Notes under the pieces: generated by a model | Told to the model about the DNA's origin: nothing | Database searches by the model: none | The model's input: the letters and a program-made list of their open reading frames with translations, nothing else | Translations under genes and position numbers: made by a program | Origin: an uncultured Mycoplasmatota bacterium | Lineage (GTDB): Bacteria > Bacillota_I > Bacilli_A > RF39 > UBA660 | Direction of reading: 5' to 3' | DNA length: 64,000 bases | Assembly: GCA_947426265.1 (NCBI GenBank) | Contig: CANEDJ010000001.1 | Span: 17,310-81,309 of the forward strand | Part shown: positions 3,763-58,383 of the stretch, piece after piece | How the letters are laid out: the number at the start of each line of letters is the position of its first letter | Numbering within the stretch: the stretch's first letter is position 1

Positions 3763-3808
3763 TTGTGATACAAATGTGTCACTTTTTTGGCGTATAGGAG
3801 GCAATTAT

Positions 3809-6800
3809 ATGAAACTTTTTCATTCCTTGTTCCCAAATGTTCAAACATCTGGAGAAATTACAGGATTAACCCAAGAATTAAAAATGATATATTTATATCA
3901 ATTGTGGAATCTAAAAAAAAGAAATATTTTACTTGTAGCCAATAGTTTGTATGAAGCAAATAGGTGTTATCAAAGATTAAGTAAATATACAGAAGAAGTA
4001 TATTTTTTTCCAATGGATGATTTTCTTACGAGTGAAGCCTTGGCTATTAGTCCAGAATTTAAAGTAACAAGATTAGAAACATTAAATCATTTCATATCAA
4101 AAAATAATGGAATTATTGTAACCAATTTAATGGGTTTTTTACGTTTTCTTCCCTCTAAAGAAACATATAAAAAGGCCAGAATAAAAATGCATGTTCATGA
4201 CCAAATTGATATGCATCAAGTGATAGAACAATTATTAAGACTTGGATATATCAAGGAAACGATTGTCAATAAAACAGGAGAAATTGCGATAAGAGGTTTT
4301 GTTTTAGACATATTTCCATTAGGAGCAAGTCATCCAATTCGAATCGAACTGTGGGGAGATGAAATTGATTCTATTAGAGAATTTGATGTTGATAGCCAGC
4401 TAACCATTACAGAAATAGAAGAAATCGAGATAACTTCAAATACAGAGTTTTTAATCGATGAGATTTTAGATATAGAACCAAAACAAAGAGAATTGGGAAA
4501 TTATATACAGCCTTCAATGCTATTGGACTTTGTAGAAAGTCCTATATTGGTGTTTGAAAATTATGAAGATGTTAAGAGAGGTTATCAAACATTATCAGAA
4601 GAAATATTTGAATATCAAAATAATAATCATGAAAAATATCCTTATATGCATTCTTTAGAAAATATAAAAGCAAATGATATATTATATTTAAACAACTTTG
4701 ATAATCAAATCAATGGAGAAAATAAAAGAGAACAATTTCACTCACAGGAGCTAGAAATATTACATGGAGCAAGCGAGAAAGTAAAAGCAGAAATATTAAA
4801 ATATAGAAAGAAAACAATTATTATTTGTGTATCGAATCGTTATCAAGTTAATAAATTACTAGAAGAATGGAATGATATTTCAATTGCTTTTACTTCAATA
4901 AATGAAATAGTAGAGAATGCGATTAATATAGTAATCTATCCAATAACGCAGGGATTTCTATTTAAAGAGTATGTGGTTATTAGTGAACGAGAATTATTTG
5001 CGAAACAAGATTATTCTAGTAAATATAAAAGTAACTTTAAAATAGGAACAAAAATAAAAAATTTATCCAGTCTAGAAGAAGGAGACTATGTAGTTCATGT
5101 CGCCCATGGAATTGGAAAATATTGTGGATTAAAAACATTAGTAAAAAATGGTTTTAAAAAAGATTATTTGAATATTGAATATAAAGATGGCGACCATTTA
5201 TATGTACCAGTAGAAAAGATAGAATTTATTCATAAATATTCATCTAAAGATACAGCAATGCCAAAACTGAGTAAATTAGGCGGAACAGAATGGCAGAAGA
5301 AAAAATTAAAGGCAAGAGAACGAGCGGAAAGTATCGCAGGAGAGTTATTAGAACTTTATTCTTCAAGAGAATCCATAGAAGGTTTTGCATTTGAAGAAGA
5401 TTCAAAAGAACAATTGGAATTTGAAAAAGAATTTCCATATCAAGAAACATTAGACCAAATAAAAGTATCTACAGAAATCAAAAAGGATATGGAAAAACCA
5501 CATCCTATGGATAGACTACTATGTGGAGATGTTGGTTATGGAAAAACAGAAGTAGCATTTCGTGCCATTTTTAAAGCAATTCATTCAGGAAAACAAGTAG
5601 CATTTCTTTGTCCAACGACCATATTATCAGGGCAACATTATAGAAATGCAATAGAACGCTATCAAAATTATCCGTTTAATATTTGTCTTCTAAATCGATT
5701 CGTCAAGCCAAAACAATTGAAAGAAAATTTAAAGAAAATAGAAGAAGGAAAAATAGATTTGGTCATAGGGACACATCGTTTATTAAGTGATGATGTAAAA
5801 TTTAAAGATTTGGGATTATTGGTCATTGATGAAGAACAGAGGTTTGGAGTAAAACATAAAGAAAAGATAAAGCAGTACAAAAATAATATTGATGTATTAA
5901 CTTTATCAGCAACTCCAATTCCAAGAACCCTTCAAATGTCAATCGCTGGGATTAGAAGTATGTCTTTAATAGAAACACCTCCAGTAAATCGTTATCCTGT
6001 TCAGACTTATGTATTAGCAGAAAATGCGCAAATGATAAAAGATGCTGTTTATAAAGAATTAGGGAGAAATGGACAAGTTTTTATCTTATATAATCATATT
6101 GAAAGTATGGAAAGAAAAGAGCAAGAAATAAAACAATTGATACCAGAGGCTAGAATAATCAGTGTGCATGGTCAGATGGATAAAAATGATATGGAAGATA
6201 AAATTCTGGATTTTATAAATCAAAAGTATGACATTTTATTATGTACAACAATTATTGAAACAGGAATTGATATGCCAAATGTGAATACATTAATCATTTT
6301 AGAAGCAGATTACTTTGGCTTATCACAACTTTATCAAATTAGAGGAAGAGTAGGAAGAAGTAATAAAATTGCTTATTGTTATTTGATGTATACTCCAGGA
6401 AAAAGTTTGTCTGAAATAGCAACCAAACGATTAACAGTCATTAAAGATTTTACAGAATTAGGAAGTGGATTTTCAATTGCCATGAGAGATTTATCAATAC
6501 GTGGAGCAGGGGACGTATTAGGGAGTGAACAAGCTGGCTTTATTGATACTGTAGGAATAGATTTGTTTTTAGAAATGTTAAACGAAGCAGTAGAAAAGAA
6601 AAAGGGAAATATAATTGAAGAAAAGAAAGAAGAAGAACAACCATTACTAGATGTAGAAACAGCAATAGATAATGATTATGTTTCAGATACTGAATTAAAA
6701 ATTGAAATTCATCAAAAAGTAAATCAAATTAATTCAAAAGAAAAACTTTTGGAAGTTAAAAAAGAAATAGAAGATAGATTTGGTAAAATTTCTGATTCAT

Positions 6801-7087
6801 TAGAAATTTATATGTATGAACAGTGGTTTGAAAAATTAGCTCATCAATTAGATATAGAAAATGTGAAGCAAACAAAAAATTCTATTGAATTAATTTTGAA
6901 TCCTAAAAAAATGAAATTAATAGATGGAGAAAAATTATTTTTAAAAGCTTCTGAATTGTCAAGGTCAATTCGTTTTAGTAGTCGTTTTTCAAGATTAGTA
7001 ATCACTTTAGATATTGTTCATTTGGATAAACATTATATTTATTATTTAATAGAACTTTTAGAAATTTTAGAAAAATGCCAATCGTAA
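3809..7087 (+). CDS. mfd: transcription-repair coupling factor Mfd
   Basis: About 1090 aa. Superfamily 2 helicase motifs (GDVGYGKTEVA, DEEQRFG), a TRG-like region and a C-terminal D7-like domain. ATG at 3809 after AGGAGG at 3796. Confidence 0.9.
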   Translation: MKLFHSLFPNVQTSGEITGLTQELKMIYLYQLWNLKKRNILLVANSLYEANRCYQRLSKYTEEVYFFPMDDFLTSEALAISPEFKVTRLETLNHFISKNNGIIVTNLMGFLRFLPSKETYKKARIKMHVHDQIDMHQVIEQLLRLGYIKETIVNKTGEIAIRGFVLDIFPLGASHPIRIELWGDEIDSIREFDVDSQLTITEIEEIEITSNTEFLIDEILDIEPKQRELGNYIQPSMLLDFVESPILVFENYEDVKRGYQTLSEEIFEYQNNNHEKYPYMHSLENIKANDILYLNNFDNQINGENKREQFHSQELEILHGASEKVKAEILKYRKKTIIICVSNRYQVNKLLEEWNDISIAFTSINEIVENAINIVIYPITQGFLFKEYVVISERELFAKQDYSSKYKSNFKIGTKIKNLSSLEEGDYVVHVAHGIGKYCGLKTLVKNGFKKDYLNIEYKDGDHLYVPVEKIEFIHKYSSKDTAMPKLSKLGGTEWQKKKLKARERAESIAGELLELYSSRESIEGFAFEEDSKEQLEFEKEFPYQETLDQIKVSTEIKKDMEKPHPMDRLLCGDVGYGKTEVAFRAIFKAIHSGKQVAFLCPTTILSGQHYRNAIERYQNYPFNICLLNRFVKPKQLKENLKKIEEGKIDLVIGTHRLLSDDVKFKDLGLLVIDEEQRFGVKHKEKIKQYKNNIDVLTLSATPIPRTLQMSIAGIRSMSLIETPPVNRYPVQTYVLAENAQMIKDAVYKELGRNGQVFILYNHIESMERKEQEIKQLIPEARIISVHGQMDKNDMEDKILDFINQKYDILLCTTIIETGIDMPNVNTLIILEADYFGLSQLYQIRGRVGRSNKIAYCYLMYTPGKSLSEIATKRLTVIKDFTELGSGFSIAMRDLSIRGAGDVLGSEQAGFIDTVGIDLFLEMLNEAVEKKKGNIIEEKKEEEQPLLDVETAIDNDYVSDTELKIEIHQKVNQINSKEKLLEVKKEIEDRFGKISDSLEIYMYEQWFEKLAHQLDIENVKQTKNSIELILNPKKMKLIDGEKLFLKASELSRSIRFSSRFSRLVITLDIVHLDKHYIYYLIELLEILEKCQS

Positions 7088-10034: not shown

Positions 10035-10065
10035 TAGAAAACATGATATAATGACCTCGTTTTAA

Positions 10066-10307
10066 AAACTTTGAAAGAGAGAATACTAGCAATTATTCAA
10101 AGAGAACTTACATTTGGTGAAAGTAGGTAATAGGAACTAGTACGAATGGCTCTGGAGTTGTTTATCTGAATTTTTTAGGATAAACCGCGATTTGCGTTAC
10201 AAAAGCAAGGTAAAATAAGTATGTGTAGTTCTTACAAGAAAAGCTTATTTTATAAAAAAAGGTGGTACCACGTTATCCCACGTCCTTTTATTTGGACGTG
10301 TTTTTTT
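10066..10307 (+). ncRNA. T-box leader (probable Met specifier) with intrinsic terminator/antiterminator
   Basis: AGAGAGA and AGTA stem I elements. Candidate AUG-G specifier at 10146-10149. T-box sequence aaaaaaGGTGGTACCACG at 10255-10272. Terminator cacgtcc/ggacgtg plus T7 at 10279-10307. Confidence 0.6.
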
Positions 10308-10363: not shown

Positions 10364-10855
10364 ATGGCAAGATATTTTGAAAAAATTAGTTGGGAACAAT
10401 GGAAAAAAGATATCGGGAATAATAGAGAAGTTTACGAGAATCATGAGCTTCCAAAACGTCAAACAAAATTTAGCGCAGGCTATGATTTTAAAAGTCCTAT
10501 TGATGTTATTTTACATCCAGGCGATGTAAAGAAAATTCCAACAGGTGTAAAAATAGCGATGAATGAAGATGAAATGCTAATGCTTGTTGTAAGAGGTTCG
10601 GTAGGATTTAAATACAATGTGCGAATGACGAATCAAGTTGGAATATTTGAAAGTGATTATTTTAATAATATATCTAATGAAGGACATGCATGGATCAGTC
10701 TTCAAAATCATAGCAATGAAGATTTTATAATAAAAGTGGGAGATCGAATTGGACAAGGAATTTTTACAAAATTTTTGATGGTTGATAACGAAGAAGCGAT
10801 AGAAACGGAAAGACAAGGTGGATTTGGTAGTACCAATAAGGAGGAAAGAAAATGA
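10364..10855 (+). CDS. dut: dUTP diphosphatase (trimeric dUTPase)
   Basis: All five dUTPase motifs are present: SAGYDF, RGSVG, GIFESDY, DRIGQGIF, RQGGFGSTNK. GGAGG RBS. Confidence 0.8.
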   Translation: MARYFEKISWEQWKKDIGNNREVYENHELPKRQTKFSAGYDFKSPIDVILHPGDVKKIPTGVKIAMNEDEMLMLVVRGSVGFKYNVRMTNQVGIFESDYFNNISNEGHAWISLQNHSNEDFIIKVGDRIGQGIFTKFLMVDNEEAIETERQGGFGSTNKEERK

Positions 10856-12429
10856 AAGAAAAATTTTATATATCAACGGCAATTGCTTATACATCAGGAA
10901 AACCCCATATAGGAAATACTTATGAGATTGTGTTAGCAGATGCGATCGCACGCTTTAAAAGATTAATGGGATATGATGTTTATTTCCAAACTGGAACAGA
11001 TGAACATGGTGAAAAAATAGAAATAAAAGCCAAAGAAGCAGGAAAAAAACCTCAGGAATTTGTTGATGAAATTGCACTTGAAGTACGCAGAATTTGGGAT
11101 GTTATGAATACTAGTTATGATTGTTTTATGAGAACAACCAACCCAACGCACGAAGAGTGTGTAAAAAAAATCTTTAAACGTCTTTATGAACAGGGTGATA
11201 TTTATAAAGATGAATATGAAGGACTATACTGTACACCTTGTGAATCATTTTTTACTGAAACGCAGTTGATAGATGGAAAATGTCCAGATTGTGGAAGAGA
11301 TGTTCATAAAATGAAAGAGGAAGCTTATTTCTTGAAATTAAGCAAATATAGTAAACAATTGGAAGAATATATAGAAACCCATCCACATTTCATTGAACCA
11401 GAAAGCCGAAAAAATGAAATGATCAATAACTTTATTAAACCAGGTTTACAGGATTTATGTGTTTCTAGAACGTCGTTTACATGGGGAGTTCCAGTAGAAT
11501 TTGACCCAGGGCATATTGTGTATGTTTGGATAGATGCATTAAGTAATTATATTACTATGTTAGGATATAATCCAGAAGGGGAAAGCAGTGAGCGTTTTCA
11601 TAAATATTGGCCAGCAGATTTGCATTTAATTGGAAAGGACATTTTAAGATTTCATACAATTTATTGGCCTATTATTTTAATGGCTTTAGATTTACCACTT
11701 CCACATCAAGTATTTGGTCATCCTTGGTTACTTTGCGGAAATGATAAAATGAGCAAATCAAAAGGAAATATTATTTATGCTGATGATTTGGTTAGTCTAT
11801 TTGGAACAGATGCAGTTAGATATTATTTGTTGCACGAAATCCCATTTGCAAGTGATGGAACATTTACTTATGAACTATTAATTGAAAGAATTAATTCTGA
11901 TTTGGCAAATATTTTGGGAAATCTAGTAAATCGTACTATTTCAATGTCTAAGAAATATTTTGATGGAATGGTAAAAGAACCAGTAGCACCAGAAGCAATA
12001 GATCAAGAATTAATAAATATTGTAAGTAATGCTCCAAAAAGAGTAGAAGAAAAAATGAATGAATATCGTGTAGCAGACGCAATTGATGAAGTATTTGAAA
12101 TTTTTAGAAGAAGTAATAAATATATAGATGAAACAATGCCATGGGCACTTGCAAAAGATTCAGAGAAACAGAGTCGCTTAGCAACAGTACTTTATAACTT
12201 ATTGGAAGCCATTCGTTCTGGAGCCGTATTGTTACAAGCTTTCTTACCAGAAACAGCAGATGCAATATTCAAACAATTAAATACAGAAAATCGATTTATA
12301 GAATCCTTAAAAGAATTTAATGGTTTAGATGTTGGAATTAAGCTGAATGAGCCTTCCCCTTTATTTGCACGTATTGATAAAGATAAAAAATTGTTAGAAA
12401 TAGAAGAATATAATAGAAATAAGATGTAA
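10852..12429 (+). CDS. metG: methionine--tRNA ligase (short form without C-terminal tRNA-binding domain)
   Basis: HIGN (HIGH) motif, KMSKS motif and a zinc knuckle CTPC...CPDC. 4-nt overlap with dut. Confidence 0.9.
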   Translation: MKEKFYISTAIAYTSGKPHIGNTYEIVLADAIARFKRLMGYDVYFQTGTDEHGEKIEIKAKEAGKKPQEFVDEIALEVRRIWDVMNTSYDCFMRTTNPTHEECVKKIFKRLYEQGDIYKDEYEGLYCTPCESFFTETQLIDGKCPDCGRDVHKMKEEAYFLKLSKYSKQLEEYIETHPHFIEPESRKNEMINNFIKPGLQDLCVSRTSFTWGVPVEFDPGHIVYVWIDALSNYITMLGYNPEGESSERFHKYWPADLHLIGKDILRFHTIYWPIILMALDLPLPHQVFGHPWLLCGNDKMSKSKGNIIYADDLVSLFGTDAVRYYLLHEIPFASDGTFTYELLIERINSDLANILGNLVNRTISMSKKYFDGMVKEPVAPEAIDQELINIVSNAPKRVEEKMNEYRVADAIDEVFEIFRRSNKYIDETMPWALAKDSEKQSRLATVLYNLLEAIRSGAVLLQAFLPETADAIFKQLNTENRFIESLKEFNGLDVGIKLNEPSPLFARIDKDKKLLEIEEYNRNKM

Positions 12430-17114: not shown

Positions 17115-19109
17115 ATGAATAAAAAAGCTGTGAAAAGAGGGTTAGTACCATATTTGTTTTTATTTCTAGTCATAGCTAGTGTCATGTATTTTTTCAATAT
17201 AATTAATCAAAAAGTAAATAATATTACGTATGATAAATTTATAGAAGCAGCAGAAAAGGGAGACGTAACAGAAATCAAGGTGATTCCTAGAAGTAGTGCT
17301 TATGTTTATGAGATTCGAGGAAAGCTGAAAGATTATAATGAAAATGAAACCTTTATATTAAAGCTGCCACTAGCAGAAGAATCAATGACAAAATTAATGG
17401 ATTTAGAAGCAGAACATAAATTTAAGTTAGAGACAATCAGTGATCCTGATTCTAATAAAATTGTATTGTTCTTAATTAATATTGTGCCAATGTTGATTTT
17501 ATTAGGCGGAGCCTTTTTCATAATCACAAGACAAATGGGAAGTGCTAATAAATCAATGGATTTTGGAAAAAGTAGAGCACGGTTATCAGAAAATAATAAA
17601 AAAGTTACATTTAAAGATGTTGCTGGATTAGATGAAGAAAAAGAGGAAGTTGCAGAATTAATAGATTTCTTAAAAAGCCCTAAAAAATTTCAATCATTAG
17701 GTGCCAGAATTCCGAAGGGGGTTTTATTAGTGGGGCCTCCAGGAACAGGAAAGACTTTGTTAGCGCGTGCAGTAGCAGGAGAAGCAAATGTGCCATTTTA
17801 CTATATTAGTGGTAGTGAATTTGTAGAATTATTTGTTGGTGTAGGAGCAAGTCGTGTAAGAGATATGTTTAAGCAGGCAAAACAAAGCGCTCCATGTTTA
17901 ATTTTTATTGATGAAATAGATGCTGTAGGACGTCAAAGAGGTGCAGGATTAGGTGGCGGACATGATGAAAGAGAGCAAACCTTAAATCAGTTGTTAACGG
18001 AGATGGATGGTTTTGGAGCAAATGAAGGAATTATTATTATAGCAGCAACAAATCGCCCAGATGTTTTGGATCCAGCTTTACTTCGTCCTGGAAGATTTGA
18101 TAGACAAGTGACAGTTAATCTGCCTGATATAAAAGGAAGAGAAGAAATATTGAAAGTTCATGCAAGAGGAAAAACGTTCAGTAAAGCAGTAGAACTTTCC
18201 AATATTGCCAAAAGAACAGTTGGATTTAGTGGAGCTGATTTAGAAAATTTACTAAATGAAGCAGCTTTGCTTGCAGTTAGAAGAAATAAAAAAGCAATTA
18301 GTATGACAGAAATTGATGAAGCTCATGACCGTGTATTGATGGGACCAGCTAAAAAAAGTCATAAATATACAGAGCATGAAAAGAAAGTGGTTGCTTACCA
18401 TGAAGCAGGGCATGCCGTTTTAGGATTATGCTTAGATGGAGCAAATGAAGTTCAGAAAATAACGATTGTTCCACGTGGATCAGCAGGTGGATATAATTTA
18501 ATGTTACCAAAAGAAGAAACTTATTTACAAACCAAGAGTGAGTTATTAGGAATGATTAGTGGACTACTTGGAGGGCGTGTAGCAGAAGAATTTATTTTTC
18601 ATGAAGTGACTACTGGGGCACATAATGATTTTGAAAAAGCGACAAAAATTGCTCGTGCTATGGTAACAGAATATGGTATGAGTGAATTAGGACCAGTTCA
18701 ATTCGAGCATCAAGAATCTAGTGTCTTTTTGGGAAGGGATTATAATAAAAGTAAGAATTTCTCAAGTCAAGTTGCATTTGAAATTGATCAAGAACAGAGA
18801 AAGATTATTCATGAATGTTATGAAAAAGCAAAATCTGTTATTTATGAAAATAAAAAGCTATTAGATTTAATAGCAACAACATTGTTAGAATATGAAACAA
18901 TAACAAAAGAACAAATTGAATATCTTGTAAAAAATGGCTGTATGCCTGATGATGATAAAGAAATAGATGAAAGTGAATTTAAAGAAGCTAGTCTGAAAGA
19001 TTTATCGTTAAAAGAATTACAAGAAATAGCAAAAGAAAAAGGACTTGAAGACATAGATAATTTAACAAAAGAAGAATTAGCAGAAAAGTTAGAAGGATTA
19101 GAAAAATAA
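17115..19109 (+). CDS. ftsH: ATP-dependent zinc metalloprotease FtsH
   Basis: Two TM segments. Walker [12 protein letters not shown] region and HEAGHA zinc site. Confidence 0.95.
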
Positions 19110-19316: not shown

Positions 19317-20102
19317 ATGGGAAAAATAATAGCCTTAGTTAATCAAAAAGGAGGCGTAGGAAAAACAACTTCAAGTATTAATTTAGCAGCCTCTTTAGGT
19401 GCTTTAAGAGAAAAGGTATTATTAGTTGATTTAGATCCCCAAGGAAATGCAACAACTGGGGTCGGAATTGATAAGGGAGAAGTAAAGAAAAATGTTTATA
19501 ATCTAATGATAGATGATGCAGAATTAAATGAAGTAATCATTAAAACGAAATTTAAAAATCTTTATATTATCCCATCTAATATTGTATTAGCAGGAGCCAA
19601 TCCAGAACTATTACAAAGAAGTATAGTAGAACCAGGATTTCAAAAAAATGCGCAATTGAAAAAATATTTAGATGAGGCAAAATCTATGTTTGATTATGTT
19701 ATTATTGACTGTCCACCATCTTTAGAAACCTTGACATTAAATGCTTTGACTGCTTCAGACTCAGTTATAATTCCTGTACAGTGTGAATTTTTTGCCCTAG
19801 AGGGAATTATGCAGTTATTAAATACAATTATGCTAGCACAAAAAAATCTGAATCCAACATTGGATATAGAAGGCGTATTATTAACTATGTTAGACAATCG
19901 TACTAATTTAGGATTAGAAGTAGTAGAGGATATCAAAAGCTATTTTAAAGAACGAGTTTATGATACTATTATTCCTAGACTAGTTCGTTTATCAGAAGCT
20001 CCAAGTCATGGGAAACCAATTATTGCTTATGATCCAAATAGTCGAGGAACAGAAGCATATCTTAATTTAGCAAAGGAGGTATTAGAAAGAAATGGAAAAT
20101 AG
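19317..20102 (+). CDS. soj: chromosome partitioning ATPase ParA/Soj
   Basis: Deviant Walker A KGGVGKTT. 253-aa ParA family. Followed by parB with an 11-nt overlap. Confidence 0.85.
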   Translation: MGKIIALVNQKGGVGKTTSSINLAASLGALREKVLLVDLDPQGNATTGVGIDKGEVKKNVYNLMIDDAELNEVIIKTKFKNLYIIPSNIVLAGANPELLQRSIVEPGFQKNAQLKKYLDEAKSMFDYVIIDCPPSLETLTLNALTASDSVIIPVQCEFFALEGIMQLLNTIMLAQKNLNPTLDIEGVLLTMLDNRTNLGLEVVEDIKSYFKERVYDTIIPRLVRLSEAPSHGKPIIAYDPNSRGTEAYLNLAKEVLERNGK

Positions 20103-20967
20103 AAGAGCATTGGGTAGAGGTCTTGAACAACTTTTCAATAGTGATAATTTAGATATTGAAAGTATGGAAAGACAAATTTATGAGACAACTTCAAAAGAAG
20201 AAATTATGGAACTTGATATTTCTGAACTTCGTCCAAATCCATATCAGCCTCGTAAAGTATTTAAAGATGAAAGTTTAGCAGAACTTGCTAATTCAATTAA
20301 AGAACATGGTGTGTTCCAACCTATTATTGTTAAAAAAAGCATTAAAGGTTATGAAATCGTAGCTGGAGAAAGAAGATATCGTGCTAGCAAAATGGCTGGA
20401 TTAGATAAAATTCCAGCAATCATTAGACAATTTACAGATGAGCAAATGATGGAAATAGCTCTTTTAGAAAATCTACAAAGAGAAAATTTAAGTGCGATAG
20501 AGGAAGCTGAAGCATATAGAAGAATGATAGAAAGCTTAGATATTACGCAAGAAGAATTATCAAGAAGAATAGGAAAAAGTAGAAGCCATATTACAAATAT
20601 CTTAGGATTATTAAGATTACCAAAAGAAGTTCAAACAGAAGTAGCGAATGGAACGATTAGTATGGGACATGCTAGAGTATTAAGTAAATTAGAATCTGAG
20701 GAACGAATTATTGAACTTGCGCACCAAATTATTGAAGAAAAATTGCCAGTTCGAGAAATAGAATCAATAGCTTCAGATAAGAGTGTAGAAAAAAAAGTAA
20801 AAATTCATAGGCAAAAAGAAAGTAATAATGACTATAAATATGTAGAAGATTTATTGAGAGAAAAATTAGATACAAAAGTAAAAATAAAAGATAAAAAAGT
20901 AGAAATACATTTTAGTAACGTTGCAGATTTGAATAGAATTTTAGAAATTTTAAATGTAAAGGAGTAA
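20092..20967 (+). CDS. spo0J: chromosome partitioning protein ParB/Spo0J
   Basis: GERRYRAS arginine-rich ParB box and an HTH region. Confidence 0.85.
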   Translation: MENRRALGRGLEQLFNSDNLDIESMERQIYETTSKEEIMELDISELRPNPYQPRKVFKDESLAELANSIKEHGVFQPIIVKKSIKGYEIVAGERRYRASKMAGLDKIPAIIRQFTDEQMMEIALLENLQRENLSAIEEAEAYRRMIESLDITQEELSRRIGKSRSHITNILGLLRLPKEVQTEVANGTISMGHARVLSKLESEERIIELAHQIIEEKLPVREIESIASDKSVEKKVKIHRQKESNNDYKYVEDLLREKLDTKVKIKDKKVEIHFSNVADLNRILEILNVKE

Positions 20968-25575: not shown

Positions 25576-25794
25576 ATGGCTGAATTTTATAGAAAAAAGA
25601 AAAAGATCTGTCAAATGTGTGCTGGAAAAAGCGTAGATTATAAAGATGCAGAAATTATAAAAAAATATATTAGTAATGATAAAGGCAAAATATTACCAAG
25701 AAGAATTACAGGAGCATGCGCAAAACATCAAAGACATATTGCTAATGAAGTTAAAAAAGCACGTTTTATGGGTTTAATACCTTTTGTAAAATAG
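25576..25794 (+). CDS. rpsR: 30S ribosomal protein S18
   Basis: KILPRRITG and AKHQRHIA motifs. Confidence 0.9.
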
Positions 25795-25817
25795 ACCAAT
25801 TTGGTCTTTTTGTTTTT
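25794..25817 (+). terminator. rho-independent terminator after rpsR
   Basis: Stem agacca/tggtct with T-rich tail. Confidence 0.6.
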
Positions 25818-25837: not shown

Positions 25838-25868
25838 AAAGAACATATTTCGTAAGTATGTTCTTTTT
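25838..25868. terminator. second hairpin, likely terminator of the minus-strand gpsA
   Basis: Stem aagaacata/tatgttctt abutting the gpsA stop codon. Confidence 0.4.
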
Positions 25869-26841
25869 AATCTTTTTCAATCAAAAATTGTTTTAATGTT
25901 TCAGGATCTTTTCCGTTTTCTACAATGTCAAAAATCAAATCAATAATGGGCATATCTACATTTTGGTCTTTTGTAAGTTGATAAATAGACTTTAAAGTAT
26001 AGAGCCCTTCAATTGTAGTAGAACATTTGTAATCTTCAATTTCATCTTTTGGTATTTTTTTCCCAATCAGTTGTCCAAAAGAAAAGTTTCTTGATTTAGG
26101 ACTTGTACAGGTAAGAAGTAAATCCCCAAAACCAGCAAAAGAAAGAATTGTTTTTTTATCTCCACCAAGTTTATATATTAATTTTTTAATATCATGTAGA
26201 GATTCTGTAATAAACATAGCTTTAGTTGATTCAGGTAATTGCATTCCATCTAATATTCCAGCTGCAATTGCAATCACATTTTTAATAGATCCACAGATTT
26301 CGATCCCTTTTATATCTTCTGTTACTCTAAACTTAAAGTATTCATTTTGAAACGCTTGAATAATGATAGAAGCCGTATCACTATTTGTTGTTCCTAAAGA
26401 AAGTCCAATTGGTATTTTTTTTACAATGTCAATCGCGAAAGATGGACCAGAAATAACTGCTAACTTATTTGTATTTATATATTTTTTTATAACATCATCG
26501 ACAAATAAACAGGTATCATTTTCAATTCCTTTGCTAGCAATGCATAAGTGTTGATGAGGTTTTAAAATGGAAGTCAATTCTTTTGCAACATCGTCTACAA
26601 AAGCAGCTGGTACAGCAATTACAATTAATTCTTTATCTAGGATAGCTTCTTTCATATTGGTTGTAAAAGAAATATCCACAGGAATTGTGTAGTTTGGTAA
26701 TTTTGAACTTGTTCTTTTTTTATCTAATTCTTCTATTTCTGTGGGAAACTTTGACCACATTGTCACTTCATTTTTATTATATTCTAAAACACTTGCAAGA
26801 GCGATTCCATAAGCTCCAGTACCTAGGACAGCAATTTTCAC
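25867..26841 (-). CDS. gpsA: NAD(P)H-dependent glycerol-3-phosphate dehydrogenase
   Basis: Rossmann IAVLGTGAYGIALA motif. GTG start at 26841 with GGAGG 7 nt upstream. The TTG at 26865 lacks an RBS. Confidence 0.85.
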   Translation of the reverse strand: MKIAVLGTGAYGIALASVLEYNKNEVTMWSKFPTEIEELDKKRTSSKLPNYTIPVDISFTTNMKEAILDKELIVIAVPAAFVDDVAKELTSILKPHQHLCIASKGIENDTCLFVDDVIKKYINTNKLAVISGPSFAIDIVKKIPIGLSLGTTNSDTASIIIQAFQNEYFKFRVTEDIKGIEICGSIKNVIAIAAGILDGMQLPESTKAMFITESLHDIKKLIYKLGGDKKTILSFAGFGDLLLTCTSPKSRNFSFGQLIGKKIPKDEIEDYKCSTTIEGLYTLKSIYQLTKDQNVDMPIIDLIFDIVENGKDPETLKQFLIEKD

Positions 26842-27051
26842 GCAAATTCCTCCTTTATCATTCAACCATATTATAGCACATTTTTTATAAATAAAAAATA
26901 ATACATTACCGAAGTTTCTTCTCTCTAAAAAGCAATTGATGAAAAGCAGAGGTCTAATTATTTTAAAAAAGGATAAAATTTACTGTAGCAAAGAAAACAA
27001 CAATATGATAGAATAGTAAACAATTATTATGTCATGGGAAGGGTGTTTTGT

Positions 27052-29313
27052 ATGAGAAATGTGATTTCTACTCCATTTGGGAATTTTGAGGTGAAGCAAA
27101 ATAACGAGCCATTAGAATTTAATTGCATAATTAAAAATTATTCATCAAATAAATCTCCGGCCTTAATTCGTCTATATGTAGTAGAAGTGGAAACCAAAGG
27201 ACAAGACTCTCTAATTTGTGGATTTGAAAAGCCTATTTTTGAGAAGCTGAGTAAAGATGAACATTCAACGACATTATTTGTAGAAAATGATACTTTAGTA
27301 TTAGGATTATGTAGTCTAAATCCGAATAAACAGACTTATATCATGACAACCAATGATGAATATGGTTTTACATATAAAACAGAAAATAAAATAACTTTAA
27401 TTCTTTGTTGTATAGAAAAAGATAAATTTAAAGATGCGAAAAAAGTGATAGAAAAAGCAATCAAAAGCGAAATAGAAGCGACTATGAATATAAAGATTAA
27501 AAAAGAAAAAAAACCAAGTAAATCAATAGTTACGATTTTTCTATTTGGTTTACTATCGTTGGTTTATGTAGCATTTGCATTCCTTTTTATGAAATATAAA
27601 ATAATTAGTAACGAAGCTTTAAAAAAGATAGGTATTGGAATTTTAGGAGTTTTATTGACATCTTTTGCGCTTGCTAATTTATCAGGTTCAAAAGAACAAA
27701 GAGAAAAGAAAAAAACAACATTTTTGATATCATTACTGTTACTAGCGATAATATTAATAGCAATGGGACTAACAACATATATAATATTAACTAGAATTGG
27801 CATTGTTAAAAATGAAATGGTTCTAGGAATAGGTCTTACTATTGTAGCGCTAGCAATCTTGTGCTTGTTTGTGTCAGAATATAAAATAGAAAGAAATAGT
27901 CAGAGTCAAATTGTAAAAAAAAAGAATGTCAATGAAATAGAAGGGTTGAATAGAAAAACGGAACAATTAAATCCATTTGTTTTAAATTTTTCTATTATGT
28001 TTCCAAGGAGTTTAAAAGAAAGTTGGATAAGCTTAGTAGACAAACTTCAAATACAAGAAATGAAAGCAAGTGAGCAAGTAACAACTTATCAATTATCAGG
28101 AGAAATGGTAAAACTTTTTAATCATATAGAATTAGAAGAATTGGATATGGCGGATTTAACAGAAACAGAGAAATTAATGCTATATTGTGTTTATACAAGA
28201 CATAAAAATGGTTATATCAGAGAGAAATATGTAAAAAAAATATTAGAGATGGAATTATCTGAGTGGGAGTTCCCATTTTTGTTAAAATTGAGTGGAGAAT
28301 ATATATATGAAATTTTAATGATCATTTATAATTGTTTACAAAATAAAGATAATCAAAAATTGAAAGAATTTGCGAAAAATAATAAAGAATTATTATGTGA
28401 AGAATATGCAAGAATGCTTAAATATTGGAATCAATTTTATAGAACTAAAAAAATAAGATTTCATAATTATATAGGAAAAAAACTATTTTATGAATGCTAT
28501 GGTTATACTAGAAAATATGAAAAGAAGAGATACCAGTGTGCATGTTGTGAAAAGAAAACTATATTTGGATATTTAATTCATTATTATAATGAACCATGTC
28601 CAGTTTGTTATTGGCAAAATAATGGTTTTCAAAATAGTAATTTAGAACAGGAAGGAATAAACGGAATAACACTTAAAAAAGCAAAGGAAAATTATCAACA
28701 AATAGGAGCTATAAAAGAAGAGTATGTATCTCTTGTTAGAAAGGCAACGGAAAAAGAAATAATTAAACCAAATGTAGATCAGATTTTAAAACTGTTGAGA
28801 CTAACTCTTGTTCAAGAAGGATTCGTAAGAAAAGAAGAAGGAATATATGAAAAGAAAAATCAGAGTTTTAAAATTACTTATCATGATGGCTATTTATTAA
28901 TAGAAAAGGCGAAAAGTACAAAAGATATAAAAGAAAATATTTGGGAAAAAATAGGAAGTGTGAAAATTGAACTGGATAATCAATCTTTTGTAAAGAAAGT
29001 AGTGACAATTCTAAAAAAATCACAAGAAAAGAAAAAAACAATCAGATTAAAAAAAGCTGAAAAAGAAAAAGTGGTAGAAGAAGAGATAAATGCTTGGAAT
29101 CCACTAGGGTTAATTAAGAATGATAGTCCAAAAGGAGAATATCAATTAGAAATAAAAAAAATTACAACGAAGTTAAGTAAACTAAAATCAGAAAAAGAAT
29201 TACAAGAACATATTGAACAAGTATTTCAAAAATTATTTGGAGAAGACCTTTTTATTGATAAGAAAAAAGAAATAGAAAAAATTGCAAATAAAATTTGGAA
29301 AAAGGTAAAATGA
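27052..29313 (+). CDS. large multi-domain membrane protein: N-terminal soluble domain, about 4 TM helices, Cys-rich CPCC-like zinc ribbon, DUF1871-like C-terminus
   Basis: TM segments at about 27520-27880. C..CC...CPVCYWQNNGFQ motif at about 28530-28720. C-terminal AWNPLGLIKNDSPKGEYQLEIKKI region at about 29090-29290. Confidence 0.45.
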   Translation: MRNVISTPFGNFEVKQNNEPLEFNCIIKNYSSNKSPALIRLYVVEVETKGQDSLICGFEKPIFEKLSKDEHSTTLFVENDTLVLGLCSLNPNKQTYIMTTNDEYGFTYKTENKITLILCCIEKDKFKDAKKVIEKAIKSEIEATMNIKIKKEKKPSKSIVTIFLFGLLSLVYVAFAFLFMKYKIISNEALKKIGIGILGVLLTSFALANLSGSKEQREKKKTTFLISLLLLAIILIAMGLTTYIILTRIGIVKNEMVLGIGLTIVALAILCLFVSEYKIERNSQSQIVKKKNVNEIEGLNRKTEQLNPFVLNFSIMFPRSLKESWISLVDKLQIQEMKASEQVTTYQLSGEMVKLFNHIELEELDMADLTETEKLMLYCVYTRHKNGYIREKYVKKILEMELSEWEFPFLLKLSGEYIYEILMIIYNCLQNKDNQKLKEFAKNNKELLCEEYARMLKYWNQFYRTKKIRFHNYIGKKLFYECYGYTRKYEKKRYQCACCEKKTIFGYLIHYYNEPCPVCYWQNNGFQNSNLEQEGINGITLKKAKENYQQIGAIKEEYVSLVRKATEKEIIKPNVDQILKLLRLTLVQEGFVRKEEGIYEKKNQSFKITYHDGYLLIEKAKSTKDIKENIWEKIGSVKIELDNQSFVKKVVTILKKSQEKKKTIRLKKAEKEKVVEEEINAWNPLGLIKNDSPKGEYQLEIKKITTKLSKLKSEKELQEHIEQVFQKLFGEDLFIDKKKEIEKIANKIWKKVK

Positions 29314-29317
29314 AACA

Positions 29318-29342
29318 GAAAAGTACAAAAGTGCTTTTTTTA
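29318..29342 (+). terminator. rho-independent terminator after the large membrane protein
   Basis: Stem gaaaagtac/gtgctttt (one G-U pair) followed by T-run. Confidence 0.45.
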
Positions 29343-29396
29343 TTTTGCATGATAGAAATTTGATACAAAAAAATATCAAAAAATCATAAAAAAGTG

Positions 29397-29425
29397 TTGC
29401 AATTCATACAATTATCGTGTATACT
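29397..29425 (+). promoter_or_regulatory. strong sigma-A-type promoter of the S10 operon
   Basis: -35 TTGCAA at 29397-29402, 17-nt spacer, -10 TATACT at 29420-29425. About 135 nt of leader before rpsJ. Confidence 0.55.
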
Positions 29426-29559
29426 TTTGAATGTGTGGCATGCATTGATGTGTGAGGTTGCTGATACGCCCGGTTAAGTTGTAAAATAATTTAAAAGGGA
29501 ATTCGGGTTTTTACACGGAGCAAGTCTATACTGGATATAGGCGAGAGGAGGATATAAAT

Positions 29560-43641: not shown

Positions 43642-45078
43642 ATGAAAAATAAGGCAGTAGTGATTTTAAAATTTATGACAACTCTAGTGATTATTTTAAT
43701 TGGTGTTGTAATATGGTTATTTCTAAACCAGCGGGAAGAGGAGAAAAAAATTCCAGTAAAAGAGCCAGAAATCAAAGAAGAAAATTTAGATATTAATAGT
43801 GAATTGATTAAAAATCTTCCTTATCCAAATATGAATACTGGATGTAATAAAATAGATGATCTGGGAAGATATGATGAAAAACAATTGAAAATAGAAGATA
43901 TAGAACTTTCTGAAAAGATTGATACTGCATATAAAAAATTATCTACATCATCTAGTAATATTGTATCATCAGATGATATGAGACAATATGTCAAAAGTTA
44001 TTGGAGTGAAATAGAAGAATATAAAGATTTCAGTTTTTCATTTAATGATACCAATTATACATATGATGAAGAGGAGAAAACTTATCATGTTGAAGCAAGT
44101 GAAAGTACTAGTTGTGAAGAAACTAATTATATGAAGCGCTTTCAGCCGATTATTTTAACTGCAACAAAGAAAGAAAAGCAAATTATAGTAGATTATGTGC
44201 TTCTTTATTATATTGAAGACTCTAGCAATGGAAAAGAAGTTGTTTACCATATTTATCAAGATAAAGAGTTTACAATTTATCTTGAAACAGTGTCAGAAAC
44301 ACAAGAAAAGTTGAATAAAAGTGCTTCAAAATATCAAGAAAAATTAGAACATTATACTTTTGTATTTAATGAAGGACAAAGTGGAAATTATTATTTTGTA
44401 GAAGGTAATAAGAAAAATGTAGTGAATGGTCTTAAAGAAGTAGAAAATTTAGAAGAAAAACTTAAAGATGTAAACATATTAACATTAGATAATGATTGTA
44501 TTGAGTTTACAGAAGAACATATATATCAAAAGGATAAATTTTCAATAGAGAGTTTAAACACATCAGATCGTTTATTAATGGCACTTTCTTATGCATATAA
44601 AAATGAGCTTCTTGAAAAAGAGGATCAAGAAATCGATGACAAAATGGAGTATTCATTTACAAAAAAAGAAATAGAAAATATTTACAAAAATTTTTGGGGA
44701 GAAGAATTGAAATCAGAATTAGAAGAATTCGAGAAAATTAATTTTAAAGGGATTATAGATGGAGATCAATATCGTTTTATTGTGGATTTAGAAGAAAAGT
44801 TCTGTCCAACAAATAGAAAATATGTGGAAACGAAACTTGAACATGCGTATGAAAAGGAAGATACTCTTTATTTAGATTATAAAATCCGTTTTATAGATAA
44901 AAAAGGAAATCGTATGGATATTTATCAAAGCAAAGATTATAATATGCCTATAAAAAAGAACGTTGGAGCTATAAATATTTATGAAGAATATTGGGATCTA
45001 GAGTATGTTACTTATCGATATGTTTATAAGAAACAGGATGATGGAAAATATTATTTTTTAGAAGGACTTTATATTTAA
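43642..45078 (+). CDS. hypothetical membrane-anchored protein (N-terminal TM, large acidic ectodomain)
   Basis: 478 aa with N-terminal hydrophobic VVILKFMTTLVIILIGVVIWLF. No recognisable catalytic motif. Preceded by extended -10 TGaTATAAT at 43609-43617. Confidence 0.45.
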   Translation: MKNKAVVILKFMTTLVIILIGVVIWLFLNQREEEKKIPVKEPEIKEENLDINSELIKNLPYPNMNTGCNKIDDLGRYDEKQLKIEDIELSEKIDTAYKKLSTSSSNIVSSDDMRQYVKSYWSEIEEYKDFSFSFNDTNYTYDEEEKTYHVEASESTSCEETNYMKRFQPIILTATKKEKQIIVDYVLLYYIEDSSNGKEVVYHIYQDKEFTIYLETVSETQEKLNKSASKYQEKLEHYTFVFNEGQSGNYYFVEGNKKNVVNGLKEVENLEEKLKDVNILTLDNDCIEFTEEHIYQKDKFSIESLNTSDRLLMALSYAYKNELLEKEDQEIDDKMEYSFTKKEIENIYKNFWGEELKSELEEFEKINFKGIIDGDQYRFIVDLEEKFCPTNRKYVETKLEHAYEKEDTLYLDYKIRFIDKKGNRMDIYQSKDYNMPIKKNVGAINIYEEYWDLEYVTYRYVYKKQDDGKYYFLEGLYI

Positions 45079-48621: not shown

Positions 48622-49554
48622 ATGGGCGGCAAGATATTTAAAACCTTAGATGAACAAATAGAAATCTTAAAATCAAAAGGGTTGATAGTTGAAGACTTAG
48701 ATAAAGCAAAAGAGATTTTATTCCGTGAAAATTACTTTTTTATTAGTGGATATAGACACCTGTTTATGCGCACAGTGAAAGAAAGTAGATTTATTGAAGG
48801 AACGACTTTTGATGAGCTTTATGCAATGTTTTTGTTTGACAGAAAAATACGAAATATTATGTTCAAATATTTATTAATAATTGAAAATAATATCAAATCA
48901 ATCATCAGTTACACTTTGTCAAAAAAATATGGTTTTAAAGAAAAAGATTATTTGGACCCTAAAAATTTTACGCAAGATAATTTAAGAGTGAGACAAGTAC
49001 ATGATGTTCTAAATAAAATGAAAAGGCAAATAAGAGTAAATGGAAAACAACATGCTGCTACTATGCATTACCTTAGCAATTATGGTTATATACCAATGTG
49101 GATTTTAGTAAAAGTATTGTCATTTGGAATTGTTTCTGAATTATATTGTATACTAAAAGCAGAAGATCAAGAAACAATAGCAGATATATATGGTATTGAT
49201 ATTGAATCTTTAACGATATATTTAGCTCTTCTTTCAAATTTTAGAAATTTATGTGCTCATGAAGATATTTTATATGACCATAGGACCCAAAGAGTAATTC
49301 CAGATAATAAGTATCATCATATGTTAGATATCAGTCAAACAAAAGATGAATATGATTTTGGAAAAAATGATCTATATGCGCTTATTATTATCATGAAGCA
49401 AATGCTTAGAGAAGAAGAATTTCGAGAATTGATATATGAATTAGGTTATGAAATTGATATACTAGATGGTAAAGTAGAAGTATTACCATTAAACACAATT
49501 TTAAATAAAATAGGTTTTCCAGATAATTGGAGAGATATTGTTGATATGGATTAA
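48622..49554 (+). CDS. Abi_2 family abortive-infection protein (AbiD/AbiF-like)
   Basis: N-terminal LDEQIEILKSKGLIVED...YFFISGYRHLF characteristic of Abi_2. About 310 aa. Confidence 0.65.
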   Translation: MGGKIFKTLDEQIEILKSKGLIVEDLDKAKEILFRENYFFISGYRHLFMRTVKESRFIEGTTFDELYAMFLFDRKIRNIMFKYLLIIENNIKSIISYTLSKKYGFKEKDYLDPKNFTQDNLRVRQVHDVLNKMKRQIRVNGKQHAATMHYLSNYGYIPMWILVKVLSFGIVSELYCILKAEDQETIADIYGIDIESLTIYLALLSNFRNLCAHEDILYDHRTQRVIPDNKYHHMLDISQTKDEYDFGKNDLYALIIIMKQMLREEEFRELIYELGYEIDILDGKVEVLPLNTILNKIGFPDNWRDIVDMD

Positions 49555-49563
49555 GGAGGAAAA

Positions 49564-50652
49564 ATGAAGCAAAAAATAATTTATATAGTTACCATTATAT
49601 TGTCAATTTTTATAGGTGTTTCTGGAACTTTAGTAACCATTCGATTTTTTCCTGTAAAAACTGAAACAATAGAAAAGTCTGTAAAAACAGTTTCGATTAC
49701 AGAAGCAGATTCAATAAAAGAAGCTGTTTATAAAATTTATGATGCAGTAGTAGTGGTAGAGTCTTATAGAAATGGAAGGCAGACAGGAAGTGGTAGTGGC
49801 TTTATTTATAAGAAAAGTGATCAGGAAGGATTTGTTATAACAAATCATCATGTGATAGAGGGAGCGACTTCTATAAAGGTTGTTAATATGGAGGGAGAAA
49901 CTGTAGATGCAAAGGTTTTAGGAAGTGATGAGTATGCAGATATAGCAGTTCTTTCTATGAATATTAGCGGAGTTTTGGCTGTTGCAGAAATTGGAGAAAG
50001 TAGTAAATTAGAGTTAGGAGATACGTTATTTACAGTTGGAACACCAGTTGGAAATGCTTATAGAGGAACGGTTACAAAAGGAATCTTATCTGGAAAAGAT
50101 AGAACTGTTTCAGTTGAATCTTCAAGTGGGAATGGTAGTTATATGATGTCAGTATTGCAGACTGATGCAGCAATAAATCCAGGTAATAGTGGGGGACCAC
50201 TGGTAAATATTAATGGAGAAGTAATTGGTGTAAATTCTTTAAAATTAGTAGAAGATGAGATTGAAGGCATGGGTTTTGCAATTCCAATTGAATTGGTAAT
50301 GGCTTCTGTCGAAAAATTAGAGAAGGGCGAAAAAATTGAACGTCCAGTAGTTGGTGTCAGTTTACTTGATGTAAGTAATTCTTATGCATTATATAGAAAT
50401 AAAATTACATTACATAAAAGTATTACATATGGAGCTGTCATTGTAAATGTAGAAGCAAATTCGGTAGCAGAAAAGGCTGGGTTGCAACAAGGTGACGTTA
50501 TTTTAAAAGTAAATGATGATAAAATTGAAGATGTTGCACATTTTAGGTATAATTTGTATAAATATAGCATTGGGGATAAAATAAAAGTAATTTATAACAG
50601 AAATGGAGAGGAAAAGGAAACTACCTTGACATTAAATCAAAAAGCAGAGTAA
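49564..50652 (+). CDS. htrA: HtrA/DegP-family serine protease with N-terminal TM anchor and C-terminal PDZ
   Basis: Catalytic triad context HHV, GNSGGPLVN, and a PDZ GAVIVNVEANSVAEKAGLQQGD. Starts 10 nt after the Abi stop. Confidence 0.8.
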   Translation: MKQKIIYIVTIILSIFIGVSGTLVTIRFFPVKTETIEKSVKTVSITEADSIKEAVYKIYDAVVVVESYRNGRQTGSGSGFIYKKSDQEGFVITNHHVIEGATSIKVVNMEGETVDAKVLGSDEYADIAVLSMNISGVLAVAEIGESSKLELGDTLFTVGTPVGNAYRGTVTKGILSGKDRTVSVESSSGNGSYMMSVLQTDAAINPGNSGGPLVNINGEVIGVNSLKLVEDEIEGMGFAIPIELVMASVEKLEKGEKIERPVVGVSLLDVSNSYALYRNKITLHKSITYGAVIVNVEANSVAEKAGLQQGDVILKVNDDKIEDVAHFRYNLYKYSIGDKIKVIYNRNGEEKETTLTLNQKAE

Positions 50653-50728
50653 AAGCTCTGCTTTTTAGATTTACTTCTTTTTACTTTTTTGTTATAATAA
50701 AAATAATAATAGAGGATTGGTGAAATTC

Positions 50729-53367: not shown

Positions 53368-53441
53368 AGGGGTATAGTTCAATGGTAGAATAACGGTCTC
53401 CAAAACCGCTGATGTGGGTTCAACTCCTGCTACCCCTGCCA
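53368..53441 (+). tRNA. trnW: tRNA-Trp (anticodon CCA), CCA 3' end encoded
   Basis: Folded by hand into a cloverleaf. Acceptor AGGGGTA/TACCCCT, D-arm GTTC-AATGGTA-GAAT, anticodon loop CTCCAAA, T-arm GTGGG-TTCAACT-CCTGC, discriminator G. Confidence 0.75.
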
Positions 53442-54889: not shown

Positions 54890-55231
54890 ATGAATCATGA
54901 AATGAGATTACATGAAGGACCATTTAATAGAATTAATAGTGGAATAAAAACGATAGAGTATCGATTAAATGATGAAAAAAGAAGACAAATTAAGGTAAAT
55001 GACACAATTACTTTTTATAAAAGACCTGAAGAAGTAGAAACAATTAAGGTAAAAGTTGTAGAGTTAAGATATTATGATACTTTACTAGATATGTATGCAG
55101 ATACTTTTAAAAGTTATTTAAATGAAATATATGAATCTCCACAGGCAGTAGTAGATGATACTTCCTACTATACAGAGGAAGAAGTAAAAAAATATGGTTG
55201 TGTAGCAATCTTTTTTGTGAGAATCGGATAA
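54890..55231 (+). CDS. ASCH-domain protein (YqfB-like PUA-fold)
   Basis: 113 aa. F..INSGIKTIEYR...IKVNDTITFY pattern plus C-terminal YGCVAIFFVRI, resembling the ASCH/YqfB architecture. Confidence 0.55.
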   Translation: MNHEMRLHEGPFNRINSGIKTIEYRLNDEKRRQIKVNDTITFYKRPEEVETIKVKVVELRYYDTLLDMYADTFKSYLNEIYESPQAVVDDTSYYTEEEVKKYGCVAIFFVRIG

Positions 55232-55233
55232 AT

Positions 55234-55713: not shown

Positions 55714-55750
55714 AAGTATAGGTTTTTTTATTTTATATAGAAACTTAATT

Positions 55751-55759
55751 TGGTATAAT
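55751..55759 (+). promoter_or_regulatory. extended -10 TGgTATAAT upstream of nucleotidase gene
   Basis: TG at 55751-55752 and TATAAT at 55754-55759. This excludes the ATG at 55758 as the start codon. Confidence 0.4.
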
Positions 55760-55781
55760 GAAATTGAAGAGGAGGATAAGA

Positions 55782-56297: not shown

Positions 56298-56307
56298 GAG
56301 GTATTAT

Positions 56308-58371: not shown

Positions 58372-58383
58372 AAGGAGGTTAGT

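Follow-up and report, generated by a model that had tools for sequence, protein, structure and literature searches.

A fast-diverging, six-part membrane protein between gpsA and the S10 operon of uncultured gut Bacilli, tentatively read as an immunity-type binding protein

Recombinase-associated orphan immunity gene clusters of Bacteroidales, said to have been described by Ross et al. in 2019, are reportedly a form of acquired interbacterial defense. Proteins that fuse several immunity domains constitute another described category, the "polyimmunity proteins" (Zhang et al. 2012, Biol Direct 7:18, PMC3482391). Here we analyze a gene that invites comparison with both, located in a 64,000-nucleotide stretch of the genome of an uncultured Mycoplasmatota bacterium (assembly GCA_947426265.1, contig CANEDJ010000001.1, positions 17,310–81,309 of the forward strand), hereafter the window. 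The gene encodes a six-part membrane protein that is positionally conserved within one lineage of uncultured gut Bacilli, diverges much faster than its neighbors, and carries an intragenic recombination boundary. We tentatively read it as a membrane-tethered, polyvalent immunity-type binding protein, a new architecture in the "polyimmunity" sense at a core-genome location, and consider the chance that this reading is correct to be real but short of even.

Gene structure, protein anatomy, and genomic slot

The coding sequence (27052–29313, + strand; 753 amino acids plus stop codon in the open reading frame (ORF) list) lies in an uninterrupted open frame at 27034–29313 (+), in DNA of around 25–30% G+C (25–35% across the whole window). 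A preliminary description of this DNA had placed the gene correctly, but its length of 759 amino acids was the count from an upstream ATG at 27034. Translation almost certainly starts at the ATG at 27052, because this codon is preceded by a Shine-Dalgarno-like GGGAAGGGTG (27036–27054, +, start codon included, from sequence reading and aligned loci), because the orthologs begin there (M[KR]NVIS or MKDVI in every one), and because conservation does not extend to the ATG at 27034 (TGTGG in locus L006). Segment boundaries and cysteine positions of the window protein follow the 753-residue numbering unless stated, and the AlphaFold2 model of the whole protein is of low confidence, with a predicted local distance difference test score (pLDDT) of 61.5.

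The protein begins with an all-beta domain, modeled as a beta-sandwich (residues 1–125; 27052–27426, +; motifs TPFGNFxVKQN, IRLYVxE, and CCIEK), and an amphipathic helix (129–145), followed by four transmembrane (TM) helices (157–276; 27520–27879, +) and a middle domain of ∼190 residues with a HEAT/ARM-like fold (∼306–493; 27967–28530, +). A CPCC cysteine-rich, zinc-ribbon-like domain (494–569; 28531–28758, +; CaCC...CPVCyWqNN...Q), a modeled alpha/beta domain without a known family (∼575–660; 28774–29031, +), and a C-terminal DUF1871-like helical domain (∼668–753; 29053–29310, +; WNPLGL...EYxxEIKKI) complete the chain. The four TM helices of the preliminary description are borne out by hydropathy (∼161–287 in the 759-residue numbering) and by the model (157–181, 187–210, 221–249, and 255–276). 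An N-in/C-in topology, which would place all soluble domains in the cytoplasm, is favored because of the Lys/Arg distribution, with ∼19 such residues on the proposed cytoplasmic flanks and loop 2 versus ∼6 on loops 1 and 3. The alpha/beta domain is modeled as a helix, four to five strands, and a helix (pLDDT ∼80); it has no family match in a segment scan and is the most divergent folded segment (26–46% identity among orthologs).

Four of the six segments have no family match in Pfam, NCBIfam and PADLOC recognized nothing in the protein, PHROGs gave no informative match for any segment, and a Foldseek search with the whole low-confidence model returned no match at E ≤ 0.001. Pfam families of the Imm, SUKH, and CdiI type likewise have no match in the protein, and its relatives are all annotated as "hypothetical protein". 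The architecture is undescribed, as the preliminary description had supposed. A likeness of the beta-sandwich to N-domains of glycoside hydrolases, found by structure comparison, was set aside as generic. Weak Pfam matches in the TM region (MFS_1, Acyl_transf_3, DUF2070, and others) were rejected as products of hydrophobic composition, and matches to COP9/PCI (E 0.07) and Phage_pRha (E 0.14) as insignificant.

The two small modules proposed in the preliminary description differ in how they held up. The CPCC identity is firm: PF14206 (Cys_rich_CPCC) matches over profile positions 1–75 of 75 (E = 6.5e-16; 58.3 bits against a cutoff of 24.5) and is found in all 10 full-length sequences of the ortholog alignment (96–40% identity). 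C496, C498, C499, C516, and C519 (C-x-C-C...C-P-x-C) are invariant in these 10 orthologs and align with the cysteines of 8ey4_I, and the domain is predicted to bind zinc. PDB sequence matches are 8ey4_I and 8ey3_A, annotated "Cys_rich_CPCC domain-containing protein" (E ∼3e-6); that a CPCC protein was crystallized as chain "I" of 8EY4 is a lead only. With the CPCC family (PF14206; 8EY3/8EY4) the domain shares the full profile, all four cysteines, and the W-[EQ]-[DN]-[DN]..Q and L..A..N[YF] motifs. A typical member stands alone, with ∼75–90 amino acids, whereas here the domain is internal to a much larger membrane protein.

The DUF1871 identity (PF08958) stands through orthologs and fold and falls short in the window protein itself, where the match stays below threshold when the last 87 residues are scanned alone (16.7 bits vs 22, E = 0.0096) and no PF08958 match was reported in a full-length scan. 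Among orthologs, P0011 reaches 28.6 bits (E = 1.9e-6) and two of the ten aligned orthologs match (best E 9.2e-7). The family alignment has no gaps in this segment, and the model predicts the same fold as the solved PF08958 structure 1U84 (APC36109, Bacillus stearothermophilus), which is a stand-alone chain of 81 residues, whereas here the domain is a C-terminal module. Lack of profile support for either module, which the preliminary description had named as telling against its reading, is thus not what we find, CPCC passing in the window protein and DUF1871 in orthologs. A word-indexed protein search with a profile spanning CPCC to the C-terminus returned one fragment and was dominated by Lys/Glu-rich words.

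Full-length relatives form nine clusters at 90% identity plus P0010 and P0011, all from gut metagenome-assembled genomes labeled "Bacilli bacterium" or from metagenomes. The position between gpsA and rpsJ given in the preliminary description is confirmed, and rpsJ lies directly downstream in six of the seven fetched lineages, with ychF-rpsF-ssb-rpsR and then gpsA upstream. On the short contig of P0011 only rpsJ is visible as a neighbor; P0010 follows rpsF-ssb-rpsR and a glycosyltransferase gene, and rpsJ is not downstream of it. The conserved slot in the fetched loci argues for vertical inheritance and not for mobility, and by its synteny this is an old, vertically inherited, positionally conserved gene of one uncultured gut Bacilli lineage. 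Conservation as a core protein among relatives had been named in advance as a finding that would tell against the preliminary reading, and it is half borne out: position and vertical inheritance hold in every fetched relative, and there is no mobile accessory cassette. We rejected a mobile element or horizontal insertion, since G+C and skew are unremarkable, synteny is conserved, and flanking repeats are absent. The only recombinase found at the fetched loci is in L007 (803–2763): an IS200-type Y1 transposase is encoded on the far side of gpsA, and the intergenic region between gpsA and the target gene exceeds that of the other loci by ∼340 bp. L005 has a NUDIX gene in the gpsA position.

Signals read from the DNA indicate that the gene is its own transcription unit. 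A gpsA terminator had been reported upstream; gpsA (25867–26865) is on the minus strand and divergent, so the upstream interval holds both promoters and no such terminator, and the sole terminator-like site near the gpsA 3′ end (25793–25807) is annotated on the + strand, just after rpsR. A promoter-like extended −10 element, TGATAGAAT (27006–27014, +), read from the sequence, presumably serves the gene's own unit; the block GGATAAAATTTACT...TGATAGAATAGTAAACAATTAT is kept in five of five aligned loci, and the remaining intergenic DNA varies. Directly 3′ of the stop codon lies an intrinsic-terminator-like hairpin with a U-run (29317–29345, +; −8.4 kcal/mol, z −2.4 by RNA folding), below the reach of the consensus terminator scanner, and other loci have a hairpin and T-run at the equivalent place, upstream of a conserved S10 promoter. 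That promoter, TTGCAA-17-(TG)TATACT, lies between the gene and rpsJ (region 29397–29544) and is followed by a leader of ∼110 nt, nearly invariant in seven of seven loci, which matches the full Rfam model RF03136 (S10-Clostridia r-protein leader) at 32.2 bits against a gathering threshold of 35.1 (E = 4.4e-4). Membership in the S10 operon was rejected, as hairpin, promoter, and leader stand between the gene and rpsJ.

In the textbook gene order of Bacillus subtilis, rpsL-rpsG-fusA-tuf precede rpsJ, and the gene had been described as occupying the "slot" of this str operon. No str-operon gene was recognized among the window ORFs scanned, the slot has no demonstrated relevance, and we rejected the argument as an unsupported analogy to B. 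subtilis.

Fast divergence and allelic recombination

Compared with five relatives, the flanking proteins are 83–100% identical, whereas the protein studied here is 70%, 56%, 39%, 52%, and 63% identical. Its nonsynonymous divergence (dN) is 5–10 times that of its neighbors, and its ratio of nonsynonymous to synonymous divergence (dN/dS) is 0.20–0.36, compared with 0.02–0.13 in the neighbors. The gene is under purifying selection and is constrained far more loosely than the genes around it.

An ORF that is decaying or has no function, or an artifact of annotation, would be one source of such divergence, and the absence of a known function and the low-complexity Lys/Glu-rich linkers would fit that explanation. 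However, the frame stays open for 753 codons in DNA of ∼27% G+C, intact full-length orthologs occur in at least ten clusters from many samples, and the dN/dS range, the motifs conserved in every domain, and the confident folds all speak for a maintained protein. We regard this explanation as effectively refuted.

The divergence is concentrated in one part of the gene. Relative to locus L001, residues 1–145 are 99% identical with a synonymous divergence (dS) of 0.15, whereas the remainder is 36–79% identical with dS of 0.5–1.2; by domain, dS is 0.15 in the beta-sandwich, 0.54 in the TM region, and 0.85–1.2 from the middle domain to the C-terminus. Nucleotide identity to the same locus is 96–98% at 26995–27444, 61–82% at 27739–29377, and 97–99% from 29378 on, which delimits a divergent "cassette" (27739–29377) running from TM3–4 through the C-terminus and the terminator. 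Because identity falls sharply inside the gene and then recovers, the pattern indicates that homologous recombination exchanged the 3′ two-thirds for those of an old, diverged allele. Variation falls on the cytoplasmic modules and not on the short loops outside. Irrespective of function, this is a hypervariable cassette inside housekeeping DNA that is otherwise ∼98% identical. Relative to L006, gpsA itself shows a dS of 0.92, versus ∼0.3 for abgT and ychF, and the recombination-prone stretch may extend into gpsA.

Fast divergence together with a recombination boundary resembles conflict-like evolution and points, tentatively, to a role in microbial conflict, toxin immunity being one example. 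A rival explanation, which we hold to be unlikely, casts the protein as a housekeeping scaffold or regulator in the membrane, specific to this lineage and concerned, for example, with the ribosome and translation or with envelope homeostasis, in which fast drift would be tolerated since only the fold and a few motifs would matter. Were this or another of the rival explanations true, the gene would encode a membrane protein particular to its lineage and of modest general interest.

The middle domain and the contexts of the modules

Besides the divergence and its intragenic boundary, a second result goes beyond the preliminary description: the stretch that links the TM helices to CPCC represents a widespread, uncurated family. 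This middle domain had gone unrecognized, and in a few loci it adjoins SMI1/KNR4, TriTu, CdiI_ImmP, or DMP19 genes. The model builds it from two helices, a beta-hairpin, and a HEAT/ARM-like helical solenoid, a confidently predicted alpha-solenoid, which is a fold typical of protein-binding modules. Its motifs are PYRIY, C.YTR..DGY.REK, DEYV.EIL, RM.SYWN.YYR, and Y.G.KLF.EC.GY.

A profile search, exhaustive over 1.84 billion cluster representatives, returned 706 proteins at E < 1e-10, only four of them full-length relatives; among the matches listed, nearly all cover only positions ∼315–495. Stand-alone proteins of ∼190 amino acids account for 101 of 138 middle-domain matches. A second search gave 305 matches (E ≤ 1e-5), of which the best 120 listed all reach E ≤ 2.2e-66 and are all "hypothetical", with sources including Planococcus, Peribacillus, Sporosarcina, Cohnella, Coprobacillaceae, and Clostridia. 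By tblastn the domain also occurs on replicons of Burkholderia/Ralstonia, Bacteroides/Phocaeicola, and Streptomyces, and it is absent from 50,697 phage records. The window's domain is a genuine member of this family (27–45% identity, profile E down to 1e-53). Whatever its function, the family comprises hundreds of clusters at 50% identity, has a confident predicted fold, and has neither an entry nor a match in Pfam, NCBIfam, PADLOC, or PDB sequences.

In a sub-group from other lineages the middle domain stands behind three to four N-terminal TM helices, in proteins of ∼320–830 amino acids (P0030, P0053, P0064, P0072, P0096, P0112, and P0125). Other fusions join it to GNAT, DUF4275, Cys-rich N-termini, and cohesin-MACPF, the last in P0066, where it forms the C-terminus of a 1350-residue protein. 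In P0012 it follows Cys-rich CxxC pairs that look zinc-ribbon-like by eye, without support from the family scan.

The preliminary description had linked CPCC and DUF1871 to immunity- or accessory-type proteins. For CPCC an immunity link receives some support from three of eight sampled plasmid contexts, in which the stand-alone protein sits in toxin/immunity arrays, and the middle domain gains some from its neighbors in a few loci. In Pseudomonas aeruginosa the array contains fragments annotated "toxin glutamine deamidase", YrhB, and "DNA/RNA non-specific endonuclease", and in Vibrio it comprises ∼14 co-oriented small genes including a MafI immunity protein. The Lactococcus gene lies just downstream of a gene for a 3056-residue protein containing DUF6531, which we take to be a marker of Rhs-type polymorphic toxins. 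The middle domain occurs on a Bacteroides plasmid in the order integrase-MobV-[middle domain]-DUF2750-SMI1/KNR4, and in Cohnella in the order TriTu immunity protein-DUF2691-ORF-[middle domain], after a type I restriction–modification system. DUF1871 had no tblastn match in plasmids.

One ortholog carries a toxin-type domain itself. P0011 (L011, 399–3047) has an Ntox50 domain, a BECR-fold RNase toxin, at residues 174–239; the match passes the cutoff (E = 3.8e-8), and the domain is inserted ahead of TM1, after the N-terminal beta domain. The segment ends in ...GSWLIPTSP where HxVP is expected, with WLIP in its place when read without an alignment, and the Ntox50-like domain may be catalytically inactive. 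The presence of this domain ties the family to the polymorphic-toxin domain pool (PMC3482391).

The same domain bears on a further explanation, a single-protein anti-phage or abortive-infection device in which cytoplasmic modules would sense a phage product, the four-helix segment would arrest growth, and an RNase domain was added in one ortholog. Defense systems commonly join a membrane-spanning effector to a variable sensor module. The hypervariable cytoplasmic part would suit such a device, as would the additional match of the P0011 segment to the phage family phrog_19468 and an Abi_2 gene 19 kb downstream in the window. Set against these are the lack of a PADLOC match and of a defense island, a fixed position in a housekeeping locus in all relatives, the absence of the middle domain from phage records, and the missing HxVP in P0011. 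We judge the device distinctly unlikely.

The Abi_2 gene (abortive-infection-like, E = 3.5e-41) and a following gene for an HtrA-type trypsin-PDZ protease occupy 48622–50652; two ORFs near Abi_2, at 43642–45078 (478 amino acids) and 50717–52498 (593 amino acids), have no Pfam match. A cluster at 54890–59433 encodes ASCH, GNAT, an unknown 179-residue ORF, an aminotransferase-GNAT fusion (687 amino acids), and an unknown 349-residue ORF; despite ORF sizes that might suggest it, this is not the str operon. The window also contains a T-box leader at 10062–10290 (112.5 bits), upstream of ORFs at 10364–12429, and a single tRNA-Trp (anticodon CCA) at 53368–53441. Across the window, GC skew is positive. 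Positions 1–25800, judged by how gene lengths and positions match L002, follow the origin-proximal Firmicutes order, with mfd (3776–7087), ftsH (17115–19109), parA/parB (19317–20967), mscS, DUF951, abgT, ychF, and rpsF-ssb-rpsR, and this gene order suggests a location near the replication origin.

Proposed function and comparison with known systems

Under the tentatively favored immunity-type reading, the four helices would anchor the protein in the membrane with its soluble modules facing the cytoplasm, and the HEAT/ARM-like domain, CPCC, the variable alpha/beta domain, and DUF1871 would act as immunity-array-type modules carried on one chain. That chain would lie at the inner membrane face, where toxins of competitors or phage proteins would first arrive, and its modules would bind and neutralize them; we infer both this role and the nature of the partners. 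The gene would be held fixed between rpsR/gpsA and the S10 operon and transcribed alone, with homologous recombination exchanging old alleles and so keeping the module-bearing 3′ two-thirds diverse in the population. If this is true, an uncultured gut Bacilli lineage would be protected by a core-genome, multi-module immunity protein and not by mobile arrays of small immunity genes, and diversification by allele exchange would represent a different organization of interbacterial or anti-phage defense. A bolder version, which we think improbable, would make this the first chromosomally fixed, membrane-tethered "immunity hub" with exchangeable neutralizing modules kept polymorphic by allelic recombination, and the middle domain a large uncatalogued immunity or defense family of Bacillota, Bacteroidota, Pseudomonadota, and Actinomycetota.

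The evidence for an immunity role is associative, and several observations weigh against it, among them the missing linkage to toxins and the residue conservation of the middle domain. No toxin, secretion-system gene, or immunity array lies near the gene in the fetched loci, whose neighborhood is housekeeping, and no toxin-type domain or secretion gene was recognized in the window ORFs scanned. Five of the eight stand-alone CPCC contexts were uninformative. Of 44 close same-strand neighbors of the middle domain in metagenome loci, SMI1_KNR4, CdiI_ImmP, and DMP19 account for one each and GNATs for four, the rest being mostly miscellaneous or unknown; the immunity association is modest (3 of 44), and GNATs (4 of 44, plus the fusion) and small enzymes are equally common. 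With the window protein, P0011, and stand-alone middle-domain proteins as queries, PADLOC-DB v2 gave no match at E ≤ 0.1. In the literature we found none of the modules as an experimentally validated immunity family, and nothing relevant for DUF1871, PF14206/CPCC, CPCC with immunity or toxin, or 8EY3/8EY4. Being below 1 throughout, dN/dS does not indicate positive selection. Finally, polar residues of the middle domain (R84, R91, K113, E117, N145, and YWN.YYR) are invariant across phyla, a pattern to be expected more from an enzyme or a protein that binds a conserved ligand than from an immunity protein under co-evolution.

These residues would suit a membrane-anchored enzyme or conserved-ligand binder, in which the HEAT-like middle domain would act on nucleic acid, a small molecule, or a damaged substrate (cf. 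AlkD-type glycosylases) and CPCC and DUF1871 would be accessory. However, neither sequence nor profile comparison relates the protein to an enzyme family; the structural match to AlkD2 is no better than those to dozens of generic solenoids, and the middle domain shows no specific similarity to HEAT-like-repeat DNA glycosylases (AlkC/AlkD) beyond the generic alpha-solenoid. An enzyme would also leave the hypervariability of the surrounding modules and the Ntox50 insertion unexplained, and we consider it doubtful.

Among known proteins, the closest relatives of the middle domain are the stand-alone ∼190-residue proteins with PYRIY, YTR..DGY.REK, and SYWNxYYR motifs from Bacillota, Burkholderia/Ralstonia, Bacteroides, and Streptomyces. 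The window's domain belongs to this family, which likewise has a TM-preceded sub-group; its members differ in being mostly single-domain, soluble, and encoded in accessory regions, and none is characterized. The resemblance to the orphan immunity clusters of Bacteroidales lies in one middle-domain homolog, that of the Bacteroides plasmid, which sits in an integrase/MobV-linked array with DUF2750 and SMI1/KNR4. In contrast to those clusters, the gene studied here joins its modules by fusion and does not form an array, and it lies outside mobile elements, with no recombinase close by.

The comparison with polyimmunity proteins (PMC3482391) extends further. As in that category, several small modules that are otherwise stand-alone are combined on one chain, at least two of them, CPCC and the middle domain, are associated in some other loci with recognized immunity genes in co-oriented arrays or with adjacent polymorphic toxins, and variability between strains is marked (39–70% identity versus 83–100% in the neighbors, with the recombination boundary). 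The protein described here differs in that its modules include no validated or named Imm family and are anchored in the membrane, and in that its gene occupies a housekeeping locus with no toxin/immunity array nearby and is vertically inherited.

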